This document shows, piece by piece, positions 1,934-20,713 of a stretch of 64,000 nt of DNA. This stretch comes from Clostridia bacterium (GTDB taxonomy: Bacteria; Bacillota; Clostridia; Oscillospirales; CAG-272). Under the pieces are notes generated by a model. It was not told the DNA's origin. It saw nothing but the letters and a program-made list of their open reading frames with translations, and did not search any database. Every line of letters begins with the position of its first letter. Position 1 is the first letter of the stretch. The stretch spans positions 1,335-65,334 of the forward strand of contig JAFQEC010000038.1 of the NCBI GenBank assembly GCA_017415805.1, written 5' to 3'. The position numbers and the translations under genes are program-made.

Positions 1934-3271
1934 ATGGGAGATGGCAGTAGTATACCTTTATGGCTCGCGTTTATCGCATGTGTTATATTAGGTGCATATT
2001 TTGCCGCAACCGAAAGCTCGTTTTCGGCAGTCAACAAGATCAAGGTCAAGACCCTCGCGGATGACGGAGACCGTCGCGCAAAGGGCGTTTTGTACATCCT
2101 CAACCACTTTGAAAAGGCGCTGACCACGCTGCTGGTGGGCAACAACATCACGAAGATCGCGGGCGCATCAGTCTTTACCATTATTGCGACTCAGTTCTTC
2201 AAAAACGCGGGAAAGAGTGACGATTTCATCAATTCGTTCGCCTTCTCGATCGGGTGCAGTGCGGTGAGCACGGCGATCATCTTCCTCTTTAGCGAGATGA
2301 TCCCCAAGAGCTTTGCCAACGACCGCAGTCAGAGCGTTTCGGCCTTTTTCCAGGGCTCGTTGCGCCTGCTGATGCGCGTGCTTACACCCGTTTCGGCTGT
2401 GTTCGGCCTGGTCTCCAACGGTGCCTCGCGCCTGTTCGGCGGCAAGGAGGAGCCCTCGATCACCGAGGATGAGCTCTTAGAGATCCTGGATACCGTTGAG
2501 GAGGAGGGCGTCGTGGACGAGGAGCAGGGCGACATGCTCAAATCCGCGCTGGAGTTTGGCGATACCACGGTGGGCGACATCATGACGATGGCGCGTGATA
2601 TGGAGGCACTGAACGTGGCCTCGACCACCGAGCAGATCCTGGCGGTCATCCGCGCCACCAATTATTCGCGTATTCCCGTCTATGCGGGAACGCCCGACCG
2701 CATCATCGGCACGCTTCGCACCCGCAAATATCTGGCAGAGCACAGGCGCAACCCGAGCGTGAAGCTGCGCACGCTGCTCTCCAAGCCGCATTTTGTGCAT
2801 GAGGATGCCAAGATCGACGACCTGCTGAATGAAATGCGTCAGCACAAGAACCATATGGCCCTTGTGCGCGATGAGGATAAAAGGATACTCGGCCTTGTTA
2901 CCATTGAGGATATCCTGGAGGAGCTGGTGGGCGAGATCTTTGACGAGGAAGACGTCGTGGATCAGAACTTCCAGGCCCTTGGCGGAAACAAATACCGCGT
3001 CAATACGCATATGCTCATGGGCAACCTGTACGAGCGTATCGGCCTTTCGGCCGCACCCCGTGCCGTTGCCGCCAAGCCCCTGCTTTCCCTGATGCTGGAG
3101 ACGGTCGGCCGCCTGCCTGCCGAGGAGGAAAGCTTCCTTTACGACTGCCTGGAGATCACGGTCGAGACCGTGGAGGACGGGCGTCCCACCTTCGTGCTGG
3201 TGCACAGCCTTGATGACGAGGAGCTGGCCGCACGTCTGGCCGCGGATGCGGCAGGGGAGGTGGAAGGATGA
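1934..3271 (+). CDS. CNNM/CorC/HlyC-family transporter (DUF21 membrane domain, CBS pair, CorC_HlyC C-terminal domain)
   Basis: 445 aa. Hydrophobic N-terminal domain, then ITEDELLEILDTVEEEGVVDEEQGDMLKSALEFGDTTVGDIMT typical of the DUF21-CBS linker, then a C-terminal CorC-like domain. Confidence 0.85.
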   Translation: MGDGSSIPLWLAFIACVILGAYFAATESSFSAVNKIKVKTLADDGDRRAKGVLYILNHFEKALTTLLVGNNITKIAGASVFTIIATQFFKNAGKSDDFINSFAFSIGCSAVSTAIIFLFSEMIPKSFANDRSQSVSAFFQGSLRLLMRVLTPVSAVFGLVSNGASRLFGGKEEPSITEDELLEILDTVEEEGVVDEEQGDMLKSALEFGDTTVGDIMTMARDMEALNVASTTEQILAVIRATNYSRIPVYAGTPDRIIGTLRTRKYLAEHRRNPSVKLRTLLSKPHFVHEDAKIDDLLNEMRQHKNHMALVRDEDKRILGLVTIEDILEELVGEIFDEEDVVDQNFQALGGNKYRVNTHMLMGNLYERIGLSAAPRAVAAKPLLSLMLETVGRLPAEEESFLYDCLEITVETVEDGRPTFVLVHSLDDEELAARLAADAAGEVEG

Positions 3272-13783: not shown

Positions 13784-15718
13784 TTAATTGATCTTCAGCT
13801 CGTCGATCTCGCGCAGCCATTCGGCAGCAGAGCCGTCGGAGGGCATTTGCCAATCGCCGCGGGGCGACAGGCCCACCGAGCCGATCTTCACGCCGTCGGG
13901 CAGGCAATTGCGCTTGAATTGCTGTCCAAAGAAGCGCTGCCAGAACACGCGCAGCCACTTTTGAATGGTGGCGCCGTCGAACATCCCGTCAAAGGCACGG
14001 CGCGCCAGCGCAAAGATCTTGGCGGGGCGGTACTGATAGCGCACGGCCCAGTACAGAAAGAAGTCGTGCAGGGCGTAGGGGCCCACGATGTCCTCGGTCT
14101 TTTGCGCGATCTTGCCCACCGCATCGGGGGGCAGCAGCTCGGGGCTGATGGGCGTATCCAGCACGCGCAGCAGCACCTCGGTCGCCTCGGGCAACAGGTT
14201 TTGTTCGGCAAGCCCTGCGATCACCCAGCGCACCAGCGTCTTGGGCACGCCGCCGTTCACGCCGTACATGCTCATATGGTCGCCGTTGTAGGTGCACCAG
14301 CCGAGTGCGAGCTCCGAGAGATCGCCCGTGCCGAGCACGAGGGCGTTCTCCTTGTTTGCCACGTCCATGAGCACCTGCGTGCGCTCGCGCGCCTGCGCGT
14401 TCTCATAGGTGACCGAGTAATCGTCGGGGCTCTGACCGATGTCGCGGAAGTGCTGGAGCACCGCGTCCTTGATCGGGATCGTGCGTGCCGTGACGCCAAG
14501 TCGTTCCATCAGCGCAAGCGAGTTTTGCAGCGTTTCGTCACTTGTGCCAAAGCAGGGCATGGTAATGGCGATGATATTGGTGCGCGGGAGCTGCAAGCAC
14601 TCCATTGCGCGCACCGCAACCAAGAGGGCGAGCGTGGAATCCAAACCGCCCGAAATGCCCACCACAAGCTTGCCGCCCGTGATCGACAGGCGGCGTGCCA
14701 GCGCCTCGGCTTGCATGGTAAAGATCTCGTTGCAACGCGCGATGCGTGCATTTTTCTCGCTTGGAATAAAGGGCAGGTGCGAGAGCTTCAGGTGTGCGCC
14801 GTCGGCATCGGCCATGGCAAAGGGGAGATCCACCGTTTCGGGATCCAGTAGACCGCCAAGCTCGGCGGAACACTCGCCAAAGGTGCGGTTGTGGCGGCGG
14901 TCGTAGCGAATACGTCCCAGATCCAGATCGGTTACCAGCAGATAATCGCGGTCGATCTGCTTTTGGTTTTCGCACACAAGCTCGCCATTCAGCGCGGCCA
15001 TCGAGTGGCCTGAGAAGATCAGATCTGCGGTGGACTCATCCGCGCCCGAGCTGACGTAGAGGTAGGCCGAGAGCGTACGTGCCGACTGCCCCACCACGGT
15101 ATCGCGGCGGTAAGCACGCTTGCCCACCGATTCGTTACCTGCCGAAAGGTTGACCAGTACCTCTGCGCCGTTCAACGCCAGCAGGGTGCTGGGGGGCAGG
15201 GGAGCGAGCAGATCCTCGCAGATCTCCACGCCCACGCGCGTGCCGTCGGCCGCGCGGAAGATGAACTCTGCATCCACGGGGAAGGTGAAGCACCCAAGCG
15301 TGAGAAGTGTGGGAGCGAGGCTTGCCGCAGGGTTGAAGTGGCGGCGCTCGCTGTATTCGCCGTAATCGGGCAAAAAGGTCTTGGGTACGGCGCCCACGAT
15401 GCGCCCACCCGTGATGGCAACGGCACAGTTGTAAAGCTGCCCGTTCACAAGAAGCGGTGCGCCCACCAGGGCAAGGATCCCGTCGGGGGTGGTTGCCGCA
15501 ATCTGGCAAAGCGCTTCCTCACAGCGCTCGATCAAAAGCTCCGCGGCGAACAGGTCGCCGCAGGTGTAGCCCGTGAGCGCCAGCTCGGGGAACACGACCA
15601 GCGTTGCCCCTGCCGCGTGCGCCTCGGTGATGCGGCGCTCGATCTCGGCGGAGTTGTATGCAACGTCTGCAAGCTTCAGCGCAGGTACGCAGAGCGCCGC
15701 GCGCAGAATATCCTTCAT
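13784..15718 (-). CDS. nadE: Glutamine-dependent NAD+ synthetase (N-terminal CN-hydrolase domain plus NAD synthetase domain)
   Basis: FPELALTGYTCGDLF is the nitrilase-type domain and GISGGLDSTLALLV is the PP-loop. ATG at 15718 follows GAGAGGAG. The upstream in-frame M at 15736 lacks an RBS. Confidence 0.9.
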   Translation of the reverse strand: MKDILRAALCVPALKLADVAYNSAEIERRITEAHAAGATLVVFPELALTGYTCGDLFAAELLIERCEEALCQIAATTPDGILALVGAPLLVNGQLYNCAVAITGGRIVGAVPKTFLPDYGEYSERRHFNPAASLAPTLLTLGCFTFPVDAEFIFRAADGTRVGVEICEDLLAPLPPSTLLALNGAEVLVNLSAGNESVGKRAYRRDTVVGQSARTLSAYLYVSSGADESTADLIFSGHSMAALNGELVCENQKQIDRDYLLVTDLDLGRIRYDRRHNRTFGECSAELGGLLDPETVDLPFAMADADGAHLKLSHLPFIPSEKNARIARCNEIFTMQAEALARRLSITGGKLVVGISGGLDSTLALLVAVRAMECLQLPRTNIIAITMPCFGTSDETLQNSLALMERLGVTARTIPIKDAVLQHFRDIGQSPDDYSVTYENAQARERTQVLMDVANKENALVLGTGDLSELALGWCTYNGDHMSMYGVNGGVPKTLVRWVIAGLAEQNLLPEATEVLLRVLDTPISPELLPPDAVGKIAQKTEDIVGPYALHDFFLYWAVRYQYRPAKIFALARRAFDGMFDGATIQKWLRVFWQRFFGQQFKRNCLPDGVKIGSVGLSPRGDWQMPSDGSAAEWLREIDELKIN

Positions 15719-15916
15719 AAGAGTCACTCCTCTCAAGGTGGCTTGCCACCTTTTACCATTGCTTTTATTGTATCACAATTCTTTACAAAATGCAAGCGCA
15801 CGGCAAAAAAGCGCTTTCTTCGCCTCGAAAAAGCCGAAAATGGAAAGAAAACTGTTCTAAAACAAAAAACAAAGAAAACAAACAATTAAAATTTAGAAAA
15901 TTAAAACTGAAAACTG

Positions 15917-15948
15917 GAAAAGCGTCCCGCCAAGCGCGAGACGCTTTT
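15917..15948 (-). terminator. Terminator of the sugar ABC / transcarbamylase-like operon
   Basis: AAAAGCGTC-13 nt-GACGCTTTT immediately after the stop codon at 15951. Confidence 0.7.
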
Positions 15949-15950
15949 CG

Positions 15951-16934
15951 TTATTCCAGACGTCCGAGCGCATACAGAAGCGAGGCACGTGCGCATTCAC
16001 TCGCCCAGTCGCTTGGCAAGCGATGGCGCAGCAGAAAAACCAACAGTGCGCGCGCGGCCGCCAAACGGTTTTCGCTTTGTGCGGCTACTAGAAAATGCGG
16101 CAGATCCCGTTCGCTTCTTCGGTACTGCGCGGGATGGTGGTGCAGGATCTGTGCGTTGGGCGCGAGCTCCTGTAAGCGCTCGGGTGTGGGGCAGTAGCTG
16201 GGTGCCGCGATCGACATGCCACTCTCGCGGCTCTCGTCCGTACCGCAGCCGAGATAGAGAAAATCGGCGTTTGTGAGTGCATCCTCTTCGCTCTCGGTCA
16301 GGGTGAGACAACCGCCGCTTGCCTTGGCGTTCATCCTTCCCATGTTGAGCAGCTGCTCGGAGAGGATCTGCCCCTCGCTTGCAAGGTGCACGAAGTGTGC
16401 GCCCAGCTTGGTGGTCATCATCATGGCCGAAGCACAGATTGGCGTAGCGCCCCCCACGAATACGATCTTACATTCCTCGAGCTGCTTACCGTCGGGCAGA
16501 TGCTCGAGCATCGTGATCGCATCGCCGAGCTCGGCGATCGGATGGCTGTAATCCGAGCGCGCGTTGAGAACGGGAATATCGGCAAAGCGTGCCAGCGTAG
16601 CGATATCGGCGTGTGCCTCGGCGCGCACGGCCAGCAGATCTACACTGTGCGTGAGCGTATGCCCCAGCATCTCGGCGTCCTCGGTGGCAGGGGGCTGGAG
16701 CACCATCGCACGGCCGCCCAGCTGCTCCATGGCACATGTGAGCACAGCCAGCGTGTGTGCCGCCGCATCGTGCGTGAGAATCCCGAGTGTTTTGTGTGCA
16801 AGCAGCGAGGGGTACAGCCCCTGCACAATGCAGCACTTGAGCGCGCGTGCCAGTGCGATCAGAGCAAGCAGCTCGTTTTTTTCAAAGGCCTCGTTTGTAA
16901 TATAATCCTGGTGCTTCATGTCTGTCTCCTTCAT
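15951..16934 (-). CDS. Aspartate/ornithine carbamoyltransferase-fold protein with degenerate catalytic motifs
   Basis: By eye it aligns along its length with E. coli OTCase. SDYSHPIAELGDAITMLEHL matches NEFHPTQLLADLLTMQEHL. STRTR is replaced by HDAAAHT, HPxQ by HPIA and HCLP by HHHP. ATGA overlap with the permease gene. Confidence 0.7.
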   Translation of the reverse strand: MKETDMKHQDYITNEAFEKNELLALIALARALKCCIVQGLYPSLLAHKTLGILTHDAAAHTLAVLTCAMEQLGGRAMVLQPPATEDAEMLGHTLTHSVDLLAVRAEAHADIATLARFADIPVLNARSDYSHPIAELGDAITMLEHLPDGKQLEECKIVFVGGATPICASAMMMTTKLGAHFVHLASEGQILSEQLLNMGRMNAKASGGCLTLTESEEDALTNADFLYLGCGTDESRESGMSIAAPSYCPTPERLQELAPNAQILHHHPAQYRRSERDLPHFLVAAQSENRLAAARALLVFLLRHRLPSDWASECARASLLYALGRLE

Positions 16935-17986
16935 CGCCGCACGAGATACTTGCGCATGTCAATGGCGCAGGCAATGAGAATGATCAGACCCTTGATGATA
17001 TACTGCATATTGGCGTCGATGCCAAGGAACGTGAGGCCCACAAAGATCAGTCGCAGTAGCACCACCCCAAGGATCACGCCACTGATCTTTCCCGTGCCGC
17101 CCACGAACGACACGCCACCGATCACGCAGGCCGCGATGGCATCCAGCTCATAGTTCAGACCCGTAGAGGCCGAGTTCGAGCCGATGCGCGCCGCCTCAAT
17201 GAAGCCCGTCACGCCGTAGAGCACGCCCGCGAGCACAAAGACCAGAATGATACAGCGCTTGACGTTGACGCCCGATACGTTGGCCGCCTCGGAGTTTGAG
17301 CCAATGGCAAACATATTTTTGCCGAACGCGGTCTTATTCCAGACCACCCACATGATAGCGGTGATGACCAGCACGTACCACACGTAGTTGGGAATTGGCG
17401 TAGAGCCGAGGGAAATGACGCTGCCCTTGATGAAATTGGTGTACGAGGGGTCCAGGCCCGAAATGGACTGACCGTTGTTGTTTCCTGTCATCAAAAGCAG
17501 CAGCAGCGCGCCGTATACGATGAGCTGCGTGGAGAGCGTAACAATGAAGGGGTGCAGGTGAAAGGTTGCGGTGCAGTAGCCGTTGATGAACCCCACAAGC
17601 GCACCGATGGCGATGACAAGAAGAAATACCACGGGAATGGGTAGCGTTTGGAGATTTGGGAACATCTTGCCCGCATAGCCCGTCATCTGCAAAAGAGCCG
17701 CCGAAACGCAGGCAACCAGCCCCACGATGCGGCCTGCCGAGAGGTCAGTGCCCGTGAGGATGATCGCGCCCGCGATGCCAAGCGCAATCGGAAGATTGGC
17801 GGCCGAGAGCGAAATGATATTGATGATCGAGGGCCCCGATAAAAAGCGGGGATTCATGCATTGGATCAGCACGATCGCTGCCACAAGGAAGATATACAGC
17901 GAGTTGTTGATGAGCAGCTCGCGCAGGTAGATGCGACGCTCATTCGGGGGCATCTGCTTGAATTTTTGAACGATTTTGAGTTTCAT
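16931..17986 (-). CDS. Sugar ABC transporter permease (RbsC/MglC type, CUT2)
   Basis: About 10 TM segments, including GTDLSAGRIVGL and IGGVSFVGGTGKISG. ATG at 17986 follows AGAGG. Confidence 0.85.
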   Translation of the reverse strand: MKLKIVQKFKQMPPNERRIYLRELLINNSLYIFLVAAIVLIQCMNPRFLSGPSIINIISLSAANLPIALGIAGAIILTGTDLSAGRIVGLVACVSAALLQMTGYAGKMFPNLQTLPIPVVFLLVIAIGALVGFINGYCTATFHLHPFIVTLSTQLIVYGALLLLLMTGNNNGQSISGLDPSYTNFIKGSVISLGSTPIPNYVWYVLVITAIMWVVWNKTAFGKNMFAIGSNSEAANVSGVNVKRCIILVFVLAGVLYGVTGFIEAARIGSNSASTGLNYELDAIAACVIGGVSFVGGTGKISGVILGVVLLRLIFVGLTFLGIDANMQYIIKGLIILIACAIDMRKYLVRR

Positions 17987-17996
17987 AGCACTACCT

Positions 17997-19526
17997 CTAC
18001 ACATTTTTTGCGGCAAGCGTCATGATCTGCTCCTGCGTGGTGCTTGCGGCATCGACCTCGCCCGTGATCTCGCCGCCCGACATCACATAGATGCGGTGGC
18101 ACACGCCGATGAGCTCGGGCAGCTCGCCCGATACCATCAGGATCGACTTGCCTGCCGCGGCCAGCTCCTCCATGAGCGCATAGATCTCGTACTTTGCGCC
18201 CACGTCAATGCCGCGCGTCGGCTCGTCCAAGAGCAGGATATCGGGCGTGGTCAAAAGCCAGCGCGCAAGGATCACCTTTTGCTGATTACCCCCCGAAAGG
18301 GTGCGGATCTGCGTGGATTTCGAGGCGGTCTTGACCGAAAGGCGCTTGACCATATCGTCGGTGTCGGCGGCGCGACGGCGATCCGAGAGAAACAGCCCCG
18401 CGCGCAGATATTTGCGCAGAGCCGAGATGGTGGTGTTCTCGGTGATGTTGAGAATGCCGAAGATGCCCGTGGAGCGACGCTCCTCGGTGAGGAACGCAAA
18501 GCCGTTTCGGATGGCCTCGCGCGGACTTCGGTTGCGGATCTCCTTACCGTTGAGGTATAACGCACCCCCCGATCGCACCGAAATGCCGAAAATGTTTTCC
18601 AAAAGCTCACTGCGCCCCGCGCCCGCCAGGCCCGCCAGGCCCACGATCTCGCCGCGGCGCACCTTGATCGAAACATCCTTCACCTTGGCGAAGCGCGAGC
18701 TGATGCCGCGCGTTTCAAAGATCACCTCGCCCGGCCTTGAAGCCTTTGGCGGAAAACGGTGCGAGAGCTCGCGCCCGACCATGAGGCGAATGATCCTTTC
18801 CATGCTCATCTCGGCCGCGGACGCGGTGGCAACGTGTGCGCCGTCACGCATGACCGTGATCTCGTCGGATATCTGCAAAATTTCTTCCATCTTGTGCGAG
18901 ATATAGATGATGCCGCAGCCGCGCGCGCGCAGGGTGCGGATGATGCGAAACAGATGCCCGACCTCTTCTTCTGTGAGTGACGAGGTCGGCTCGTCGAGCA
19001 CGATGATCTTGGCATCATACGAGACAGCCTTGGCGATCTCGGCCATCTGGCGCTCGGCCACGGGCATCTCGCTCATTTTGCGCTTTGGGTCAATGGAAAG
19101 CCCCAGATCCTCAAAGACGGTGCGCGTTTTTTGCTCCATTTCGCGCTCCGAGGTGAAGATGCCGAGTCGCTTGGGATAGCGCCCGAGCCAAATATTATCC
19201 ATTACATTTCGCCCCAGCGCCTGGTTGAGCTCTTGATGCACCATTGCAACGCCGCGGTCCAGCGCCTCGCGCGGATTGCGGAACACGATGGGCTGCCCCT
19301 CCAGCAAGATCTCGCCCTCGTCCTTTTCGTAAATGCCGAACAGGCACTTCATCAGTGTGGATTTTCCCGCACCGTTCTCACCCATGAGCGCGTGCACCGT
19401 GCCTGCGCGCACCTGAAGCGAAACGCGATCCAGCGCGCGAACCCCCGGGAATTCCTTTACGATACCGCGCATCTCAAGCAGGATAGAGCCCTCGTTTTTC
19501 GTACCGTTAGCCGAGATATTTTCCAT
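17997..19526 (-). CDS. Sugar ABC transporter ATP-binding protein with duplicated ABC domains (MglA/RbsA type)
   Basis: First Walker A is GENGAGKST, the signature is LSGGNQQK, and a second degenerate nucleotide-binding domain follows. The start is taken at MENISANG (19526). It is uncertain; the alternative is M at 19472. Confidence 0.85.
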   Translation of the reverse strand: MENISANGTKNEGSILLEMRGIVKEFPGVRALDRVSLQVRAGTVHALMGENGAGKSTLMKCLFGIYEKDEGEILLEGQPIVFRNPREALDRGVAMVHQELNQALGRNVMDNIWLGRYPKRLGIFTSEREMEQKTRTVFEDLGLSIDPKRKMSEMPVAERQMAEIAKAVSYDAKIIVLDEPTSSLTEEEVGHLFRIIRTLRARGCGIIYISHKMEEILQISDEITVMRDGAHVATASAAEMSMERIIRLMVGRELSHRFPPKASRPGEVIFETRGISSRFAKVKDVSIKVRRGEIVGLAGLAGAGRSELLENIFGISVRSGGALYLNGKEIRNRSPREAIRNGFAFLTEERRSTGIFGILNITENTTISALRKYLRAGLFLSDRRRAADTDDMVKRLSVKTASKSTQIRTLSGGNQQKVILARWLLTTPDILLLDEPTRGIDVGAKYEIYALMEELAAAGKSILMVSGELPELIGVCHRIYVMSGGEITGEVDAASTTQEQIMTLAAKNV

Positions 19527-20574
19527 ATGCGATACGGATCTTTCTGACGCTCTCGTCCACGGTAAAGCCCTCGGTGCCATCCATCAGGCCACGGTCCTCG
19601 GCAATCGCGTTGGTGGCAAGATGTGCCAATGCCACGGCCATGCCTGCGGCATCCTGCTGTACCGTTCCCGCCATTTTTTTGTCGCGGATGAGAGACTTCG
19701 CCGCGTCGCTGGCATCCACGCCGAATACGGGGATCGCGGGGGAGCTACCACCCGTGTTAAAGCCTGCCGAATTGAGTGCCGAGATCGCGCCCTCGGCCAT
19801 GCTGTCGTTGTTGCAGATCACCAGCTCCACCATGTTGTTGCCCGCGGCGTTGTAGGAGGTGAGTACCGTAGTCATATATTCGTTGGCGGCCGCGGCCGAC
19901 CACTGTCCGTTGCGGTCTACAAGATAGCCATTGGTGTTGGCGCGGTCGTAGAAGACCAGGGCGGGCTTATTCGCCCTCTCCAAAAGCTCGTTTGCCCCCT
20001 CTACGCTGTATTGCGTGCGGTAAATAGCCTCGTTGTTGCCCTCCTCACCCTTGAAGAGAATATAAGAGATCTTGCCGTCACCGTTGCGGTCGGTCTCGGC
20101 ATAATGCTCCAGCAGATATTCACCGATCATTTCGCCCTGCAAAAGTCCCGCTTCCTCGGCACGTGTGCCGACATATGCGCAGTTTTCGTAGCTGCCGATC
20201 ACGGTATCACTGACCTCGCGGTTAAAGAAGATGAGGGGAATGCCCGCATCACGCGCCAGCCCCACGATCTCGTTGGCCGCATCGTCCGAGCCTGTGTTGA
20301 CGATGTTGACAAGCAGTGCGCGTGCGCCCTGCGTGATAGCGGTACGCACCTGCTCGGTCTGCGTGGTCTGGTTACCGTTGCCGTCGTAGTCGTGATAGGT
20401 GAGCCCCGCCTCGGCGAGCTTGGCATCCAGCGCGGTACGCACCGAGGAGATATAGGTGTCGCTGTACGTGTAATAAAAGACGTGGACGTCGTCTCCCTTT
20501 CCACCGCCGCACGCGGTGAGCAAGGGGAGAAAAAGACACAGCGCCAAAAGCGCCGAAAGAATGCGTTTTTTCAT
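19507..20574 (-). CDS. Periplasmic-binding-protein type I sugar-binding lipoprotein (MglB/RbsB-like)
   Basis: MKKRILSALLALCLFLPLLTACGGG carries a lipobox. The body is Peripla_BP-like, with FFNRE and CNNDSMAEGA. Confidence 0.85.
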   Translation of the reverse strand: MKKRILSALLALCLFLPLLTACGGGKGDDVHVFYYTYSDTYISSVRTALDAKLAEAGLTYHDYDGNGNQTTQTEQVRTAITQGARALLVNIVNTGSDDAANEIVGLARDAGIPLIFFNREVSDTVIGSYENCAYVGTRAEEAGLLQGEMIGEYLLEHYAETDRNGDGKISYILFKGEEGNNEAIYRTQYSVEGANELLERANKPALVFYDRANTNGYLVDRNGQWSAAAANEYMTTVLTSYNAAGNNMVELVICNNDSMAEGAISALNSAGFNTGGSSPAIPVFGVDASDAAKSLIRDKKMAGTVQQDAAGMAVALAHLATNAIAEDRGLMDGTEGFTVDESVRKIRIAYGKYLG

Positions 20575-20713
20575 ACCATGACCTGCCTTTTTTTGTTTTT
20601 TGTGCGGCAAAATGCGCACGGTTTCGGATTTATTATGTCACCGCGCGGCGTGGTTTATGTTGCCGCTGCTTTTGTTTTTTGGGAAAGGCACGCAAAAATT
20701 CTGGCAGAACAAC

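Follow-up and report, generated by a model that had tools for sequence, protein, structure and literature searches.

A degenerate putrescine carbamoyltransferase gene behind an Mgl-like sugar importer operon, probably a relic of a lost agmatine deiminase cassette

Why should a gene for a transcarbamylase-like protein that has lost its catalytic motifs stand uninterrupted at the end of a sugar importer operon? The question is raised by a 64,000-nucleotide stretch of DNA from a Clostridia bacterium (assembly GCA_017415805.1, contig JAFQEC010000038.1, positions 1,335 to 65,334; hereafter the window), whose minus strand carries, at 15951..16919, a probable coding sequence of 322 amino acids (P0214) directly behind an mglBAC-like gene set. 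The initial annotation had read its product as a pseudoenzyme, or a repurposed ligand-binding or regulatory protein, tied to sugar uptake. By position, we find, the gene is orthologous to ptcA (aguB). That gene codes for putrescine carbamoyltransferase (PTCase), which acts second in the agmatine deiminase (AgDI) energy pathway. With a probability that we put at roughly 55%, the gene is a catalytically dead remnant of a former agmatine deiminase operon; its expression would continue under relaxed constraint, with no bearing on sugar uptake. The word pseudoenzyme remains fair as a description, while the proposed tie to sugar uptake is not supported.

Both transcarbamylase domains were found end to end in the product by Pfam, PF02729 at residues 10-144 and PF00185 at residues 154-301, with scores of 59.2 and 57.7 bits against gathering cut-offs of 29.9 and 29.4, so that the transcarbamylase fold which had been proposed by eye over the whole length was borne out by profile matching. 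Among curated NCBI families the best match was TIGR04384 (putrescine carbamoyltransferase), at 239 bits below its cut-off of 500, and among solved structures it was the PTCase of Enterococcus faecalis (3txx/4a8h; E value 2.5e-56, about 36-40% identity). A C-terminal extension of about 20 residues, predicted to form a helix at 308-326, was present as well; its signature, Lxx(F/Y/L/M)(L/I/M), reads L-G-R-L-E and deviates at the last position. PTCases have no lysine two residues before STRT (Gln50 in that enzyme), and neither has this protein, in which the position is D56, a trait of little weight once STRT itself is lost.

The motifs SxRT, HPxQ and HxLP mark all known transcarbamylases and bind carbamoyl phosphate at its phosphate and carbamoyl moieties (PMC4581275), a statement that upholds the earlier expectation that known members keep the carbamoyl-phosphate motif. 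In alignments with E. faecalis PTCase and with sets of 13 to 39 homologues, all three were degenerate, with their residues replaced and not merely shifted. S52-T53-R54-T55-R56 of E. faecalis corresponds to A58-A59-H60-T61-L62, within a former carbamoyl-phosphate site that spans H55-D56-A57-A58-A59-H60-T61-L62-A63 (16743..16769, minus strand); the register given at first, with HDAAAHT in place of STRTR, was off by one or two residues, and the degeneracy stands. H130-P-T-Q133 has become H131-P132-I133-A134 (16533..16544, minus strand), and H268-C-L-P has become H265-H266-H267-P268 (16131..16142, minus strand). In the FVGDATQV block the aspartate is replaced by G162 and the glutamine by P165. The 80's loop is shortened by a 5-residue deletion, a net 4-residue deletion follows HxLP, and in the 230 loop D227 and the following VWYGLY are reduced to G229-C230 and a 5-residue gap (TDVWYGLY aligns to L228-G229-C230), so that the putrescine-specific loop is gone. 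By homology, the only carbamoyl-phosphate ligands that survive are R104, H131, T61 and R290.

PTCases carry a signature made up of STRT and HCLP together with the 230 loop and a C-terminal helix, and a change to YGLY alone makes catalysis on putrescine about four orders of magnitude less efficient (PMC3282769). Because all three motifs and the 230 loop are lost, the protein, as judged from its sequence, cannot be a conventional PTCase or ornithine carbamoyltransferase (OTCase), nor any conventional transcarbamylase, despite its fold. AlphaFold2, run on an alignment of 40 sequences, gave a model with a mean predicted local distance difference test score (pLDDT) of 84 and a template-modelling score of 0.84 to 4a8h, with low confidence (pLDDT below 50) only at residues 231-245 in the 230-loop region; such a model, which leans on the alignment, indicates compatibility with a transcarbamylase fold and is not proof of folding. 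A homotrimer, the basic unit of transcarbamylases, was modelled with an interface score of 0.67 against 0.10 for the best control, with a contact agreement between runs of at least 82% and a pLDDT of at least 77; 20 of 30 solved pairs and 1 of 23 single chains attain the mark for this score. Since solved transcarbamylase trimers are well represented, the result may echo them, and the trimer model suggests likeness only.

The origin of the gene became evident from the genus. A match to it was detected in 11 of 39 other species, all at 43-47% identity, and longer stretches were fetched from six congeners, four of which contained enough downstream sequence for the full order to be read (in the other two, the contig stops no more than about 1.3 kb from the PTCase gene or is unreadable past it). 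The order in the four was mglB, mglA, mglC, PTCase, a 463-amino-acid APC-family antiporter, aguA, arcC and nadE. The two syntenic congener PTCases that were scored reached 552 and 568 bits with TIGR04384 (cut-off 500), and by NCBIfam aguA scored 600 bits and arcC 356-360 bits. The four functions, in the same order, are those of the aguBDAC operon of E. faecalis and Streptococcus mutans (PMC3796520, PMC3282769), and this order recurs in other Oscillospiraceae-like contigs. In the congeners (L018:6940-12538, L020:4468-10044 and others) the cassette begins 6-8 nt past a ribosome-binding site placed immediately after the mglC stop, and neither a terminator nor a promoter was evident between mglC and the cassette; from this layout, the sugar ATP-binding cassette (ABC) importer and the agmatine fermentation pathway appear to be co-transcribed in this genus.

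Little of this cassette is left in the host genome. Neither agmatine deiminase (PF04371) nor carbamate kinase was found in the 1.47-Mb assembly, which is 97.7% complete, and tblastn recovered no trace of aguD, aguA or arcC across the host genome or in the 214-bp spacer between the stop of the degenerate gene and nadE. None of the three genomic partners of a PTCase gene, for agmatine deiminase, carbamate kinase and the antiporter, is therefore found in the host, whereas all three stand beside the orthologue in congeners. A true argF (beside argD) and a true pyrB are present. Four congeners that gave no PTCase match retain mglBAC and have mglC followed directly by nadE. On a tree of concatenated MglC and NadE these four form a clade (support 1.0) with which the host genome groups (support 0.93), set apart from the cassette-bearing species. 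Three states thus occur in the genus, namely the full cassette, a lone degenerate ptcA (the host genome only) and no cassette, and because the cassette-free congeners are the sister clade of the host, the distribution fits stepwise loss.

The same synteny bears on the sugar-transport link. That the upstream genes encode an MglB/A/C-like sugar importer was confirmed by Pfam and NCBIfam, which place it among CUT2 Mgl-like monosaccharide ABC importers; MglB, MglA and MglC are the best NCBIfam matches, all three below equivalog cut-offs. In favour of a ligand-binding or regulatory accessory of this importer, translationally coupled to its permease, stands the position of the degenerate gene, apparently co-transcribed with mglBAC and starting 12 nt past the mglC stop or overlapping it through an ATG at 16934. 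The adjacency is inherited, however, since congeners hold an intact cassette between mglC and nadE, and the same tight junction precedes intact ptcA there, which derives it from the AgDI cassette. Other congeners retain mglBAC without any such gene, and outside the genus the four-gene cassette has unrelated neighbours and no Mgl genes, so that the link to the importer reflects an insertion site passed down by descent, with no functional pairing behind it. A survey of homologues with the same substitutions found none outside this one species, hence no transporter-linked family, and no Mgl-linked degenerate homologue was seen elsewhere. An accessory role in sugar import is largely refuted by these gene orders, and we regard it as very unlikely.

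The degenerate gene has also diverged far faster than its counterparts. It shares 46-47% identity with the six syntenic orthologues, which share 75-94% among themselves; its neighbours compare with those of the same genomes at 82-88% for MglC, 74-84% for MglA, 72-76% for MglB and 65-68% for NadE. The nonsynonymous distance (dN) was about 0.55 between the degenerate gene and an orthologue as against 0.04-0.19 among orthologues, with the synonymous distance (dS) saturated at 1-2 throughout. On a PTCase tree its terminal branch measured 1.18 (0.02-0.24 for the others), and it joined the genus clade with a weak support of 0.44. Its composition has drifted towards Ala, Leu and His and away from Lys, Val, Phe and Asp, a drift that MglC does not show.

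Searches of 5.8 billion clustered proteins and 1.84 billion representatives returned one close relative, 98-99% identical and from another strain of the same species, followed by intact PTCases at up to 46% identity; scans of metagenome and genome contigs yielded no further close relatives. The dead form is accordingly confined to two strains of one species and is not conserved across species. P0214 itself was seen in four samples, all with 99.9-100% identical DNA and no extra polymorphism. Between the two strains the only amino-acid changes are H55Q, L62V and V64I, all in or beside the old carbamoyl-phosphate site. Their DNA (window 16279-19215 against L001:1-2937) is mosaic: mglA differs at 2 of 1218 nt, mglC at 47 of 1086 nt (44 of them synonymous) and the degenerate gene at 8 of 654 nt, which suggests recombination between strains or assembly of mixed strains. 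The copy in the second strain (P0005, on contig L001) ends after residue 215, and we rejected this truncation as proof of dispensability because the break is probably an artefact of metagenome assembly, a chimera between related species. Over its final 232 nt (2938-3169), L001 switches to a DHH-type phosphoesterase gene and matches host contig C34 at only 77%, in contrast to the 98% identity of the rest of L001.

Several observations weigh against simple decay of a dead gene. When a congener ptcA was evolved neutrally to the same amino-acid divergence (target of 58% guanine plus cytosine, kappa 2, 2000 runs), the frame stayed free of stops in only 19 runs (0.95%), with a mean of 5.1 stops, and all three deletions in the actual gene are in frame; both tests are biased by ascertainment, the gene having been noticed through its open frame. 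Retained and changed sites are clustered among the 231 sites that are invariant in six congeners (runs z = -2.95), with residues 131-185 retained at 85-90% and the old carbamoyl-phosphate region and the region from the 230 loop to HxLP at 20-35%. Alignment columns conserved at 90% or more in 39 homologues were kept in 36 of 49 cases, as against 68 of 136 for columns conserved at 60-90% (Fisher p = 0.005), and replacements were milder than neutral (mean BLOSUM62 score -0.37 versus -0.64, reached by 4% of simulations). The strains differ by 4.5 synonymous and 3.5 nonsynonymous changes, a ratio of nonsynonymous to synonymous polymorphism (pN/pS) of 0.24 (p about 0.02-0.10, from 8 sites in 654 nt), and the ribosome-binding site and start codon are intact. 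Each of these signals is modest; together they indicate that free neutral decay fits poorly and that a translatable, foldable protein is probably under some selection. We rejected the idea that the frame is kept open to avoid polarity on nadE, given the strong terminator after the gene and the putative conserved promoter that nadE has of its own.

Selection for a foldable protein would also be explained by a real non-catalytic function, and the main alternative is a retained pseudoenzyme, in which the PTCase scaffold serves a species-specific role as a trimeric binding or regulatory protein or as a binder of metal or anions. The stop-free frame, the in-frame deletions, the clustered conservation, the mild replacements, the retention of conserved residues and the pN/pS value would all follow from it, as would the intact AAGGAG and terminator and the trimer score; within the best-kept block, residues 131-185, the changes fall on former ligand contacts (T to I133, Q to A134, D to G162, Q to P165), with the adjacent residues retained. 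New histidines are enriched at former active-site positions (Fisher p = 0.003, in a test made post hoc): five of them (H55, H60, H96, H266 and H267) lie with H131 and H265 in or close to the former pocket, and of these five H55, H60, H266 and H267 occupy former pocket positions, their spatial clustering being read from homology to solved PTCase and OTCase structures only. On the other side stand the restriction to a single species, the absence of the gene from the sister clade, the lack of any family of such proteins in our searches, the strain changes H55Q, L62V and V64I in or beside the supposed new site, a trimer score that may simply mirror solved transcarbamylase trimers, and a drift towards Ala and Leu that looks driven by mutation. 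We consider a retained pseudoenzyme possible, though less likely than a relic; its more specific form, in which the dead scaffold was recruited as a non-catalytic trimer whose histidine-lined pocket (H55, H60, H131, H265-H267) binds a metal or small anion, seems doubtful. A remodelled active site, with new chemistry that does not use carbamoyl phosphate, would also account for a maintained frame and fold and for the pocket residues that were kept (R104, H131, D224, N289 and R290), but the loss of SxRT, HPxQ, HxLP and D227 and the deletions in the 80's and 230 loops have dismantled both substrate sites, no conserved relatives share a new pocket, and the pocket still varies between strains; we judge this highly improbable.

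We favor the relic explanation because a new function of any kind must contend with a sister clade that deleted the gene, a form found in one species, compositional drift and strain changes in or beside the old active site. According to this explanation, the ancestor of the genus would have carried the cassette of ptcA, agmatine/putrescine antiporter, aguA and arcC between mglC and nadE, from which the host lineage would have deleted the last three and kept ptcA alone. Left without substrate supply or carbamate kinase, ptcA would have lost its enzymatic purpose. Its rate of evolution would then have risen to roughly ten times that of its orthologues, with point changes and three in-frame deletions in loops removing the sites for carbamoyl phosphate and putrescine. 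The remnant, at the end of the mglBAC unit, would still be transcribed with it and would be translated from a strong ribosome-binding site of its own, and its product probably still folds as a transcarbamylase-like trimer, presumably with no catalytic role and none in sugar uptake. The residual constraint may come mainly from the cost of truncated or misfolded protein in a well-expressed operon. Of this account, the orthology, the disappearance of the cassette and of the motifs and the faster rate are shown by the data, while expression, folding and the lack of a function are inferred.

The transcription unit is laid out as follows. Upstream of the remnant on the minus strand, mglB (19507-20619), mglA (17997-19580) and mglC (16931-18016), delimited here as longest open reading frames (ORFs) and identified by Pfam and NCBIfam, lie in the same unit (16931..20619). 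The longest ORF of the remnant, 15951-16934 on the minus strand, is uninterrupted and runs from ATG 16934 to give 327 amino acids (P0001), and the ATGA overlap with mglC that had been reported is literally there. The likelier start, judged from the upstream signals and orthologue N-termini, is nevertheless ATG 16919, 12 nt after the mglC stop, in front of which a perfect Shine-Dalgarno sequence, AAGGAG (16926..16931, minus strand), lies immediately 3' of that stop and 6 nt ahead of the ATG. The same succession of stop, ribosome-binding site and ATG precedes the orthologue in 6 of 6 congeners, with AAGGAG in 5 and a weaker site in the sixth, and the 322-amino-acid form is also the one used by public gene calls (P0214). 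An intrinsic terminator with a 14-bp stem and a U-rich tail (15917..15949, minus strand) begins 2 nt past the remnant stop; its fold energy is -24.8 kcal/mol (z = -5.85), and none of 200 shuffled sequences folds as well.

The downstream border of the lost cassette is formed by nadE (13784..15736, minus strand; probable start ATG 15717), a glutamine-dependent NAD+ synthetase gene that scores 785 bits with NF002730. Together with the terminator, the spacer ahead of it contains a putative nadE promoter (15767..15795, minus strand), recognized by its consensus as TTGCAT, 17 nt and TG-n-TACAAT. An element of this form (TTGCAT, 17 nt, TG-n-TA(C/A/T)AAT) is conserved 5' of nadE across the genus, with or without the agmatine cassette. 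As nadE would have its own promoter, the remnant is taken to be the last gene of the mgl transcript.

Set beside known systems, the protein resembles PTCase (PtcA/AguB; EC 2.1.3.6; TIGR04384; 3TXX, 4A8H, 4A8P) in its two-domain fold, in a sequence match better than that to any other family, in a predicted C-terminal helix extension of the kind found only in PTCases, although its signature deviates at the last position, in the missing lysine two residues before SxRT and in its synteny with true ptcA. It differs in lacking STRT, HPxQ and HCLP, in the deletion of the 230 loop (YGLY) and the shortening of the 80's loop, and in a host without aguA, arcC or antiporter. Measured against the aguBDAC operon, the host genome holds the dead first gene only, and the cassette of the genus sits behind mglBAC without terminator or gap. 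The inactive dihydroorotase that assembles with the aspartate transcarbamylase of Pseudomonas (cited in PMC4581275) offers a parallel, in that catalytic residues are lost while the gene stays intact; partners of that type, however, occur in many species and have a demonstrated structural role, whereas the remnant occurs in one species and has no known partner.

Our literature search found no description of a dead or pseudo-transcarbamylase. Six PTCase-like proteins of 289-343 amino acids from metagenomes (P0066 at L032:7001-8017, P0075, P0079 at L033:14-979, P0087, P0071 and P0102) have two or all three of SxRT, HPxQ and HxLP degenerate; the HxLP segment is missing from P0071. P0066 is flanked by a Crp-type regulator on one side and a LonC-like protease on the other, and an N-type ATPase operon is adjacent. 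The six share 24-35% identity with the remnant and differ from it in their substitutions and contexts; they are independent events and form no single family with it. Dead PTCase-like genes seem to arise repeatedly.

For annotation the locus is instructive, because automatic pipelines would label the remnant an ornithine or putrescine carbamoyltransferase and could infer from it an agmatine fermentation that is impossible in this host. The residual constraint makes a pseudoenzyme derived from a transcarbamylase, confined to one species, a slight yet genuine possibility. Were the dead scaffold indeed recruited, it would be the first transcarbamylase-derived pseudoenzyme, and together with P0066, P0075, P0079 and P0087 it would suggest that the fold has been repeatedly reused after catalysis was lost. 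As it stands, the case is one of well-resolved operon decay with an unusually long-lived dead gene, in which an operon has been caught in the middle of its loss: one genus holds, side by side, species with the full cassette, a solitary dead first gene and species with a clean deletion, so that the order and tempo of gene loss can be read directly in a small-genome gut Clostridium.

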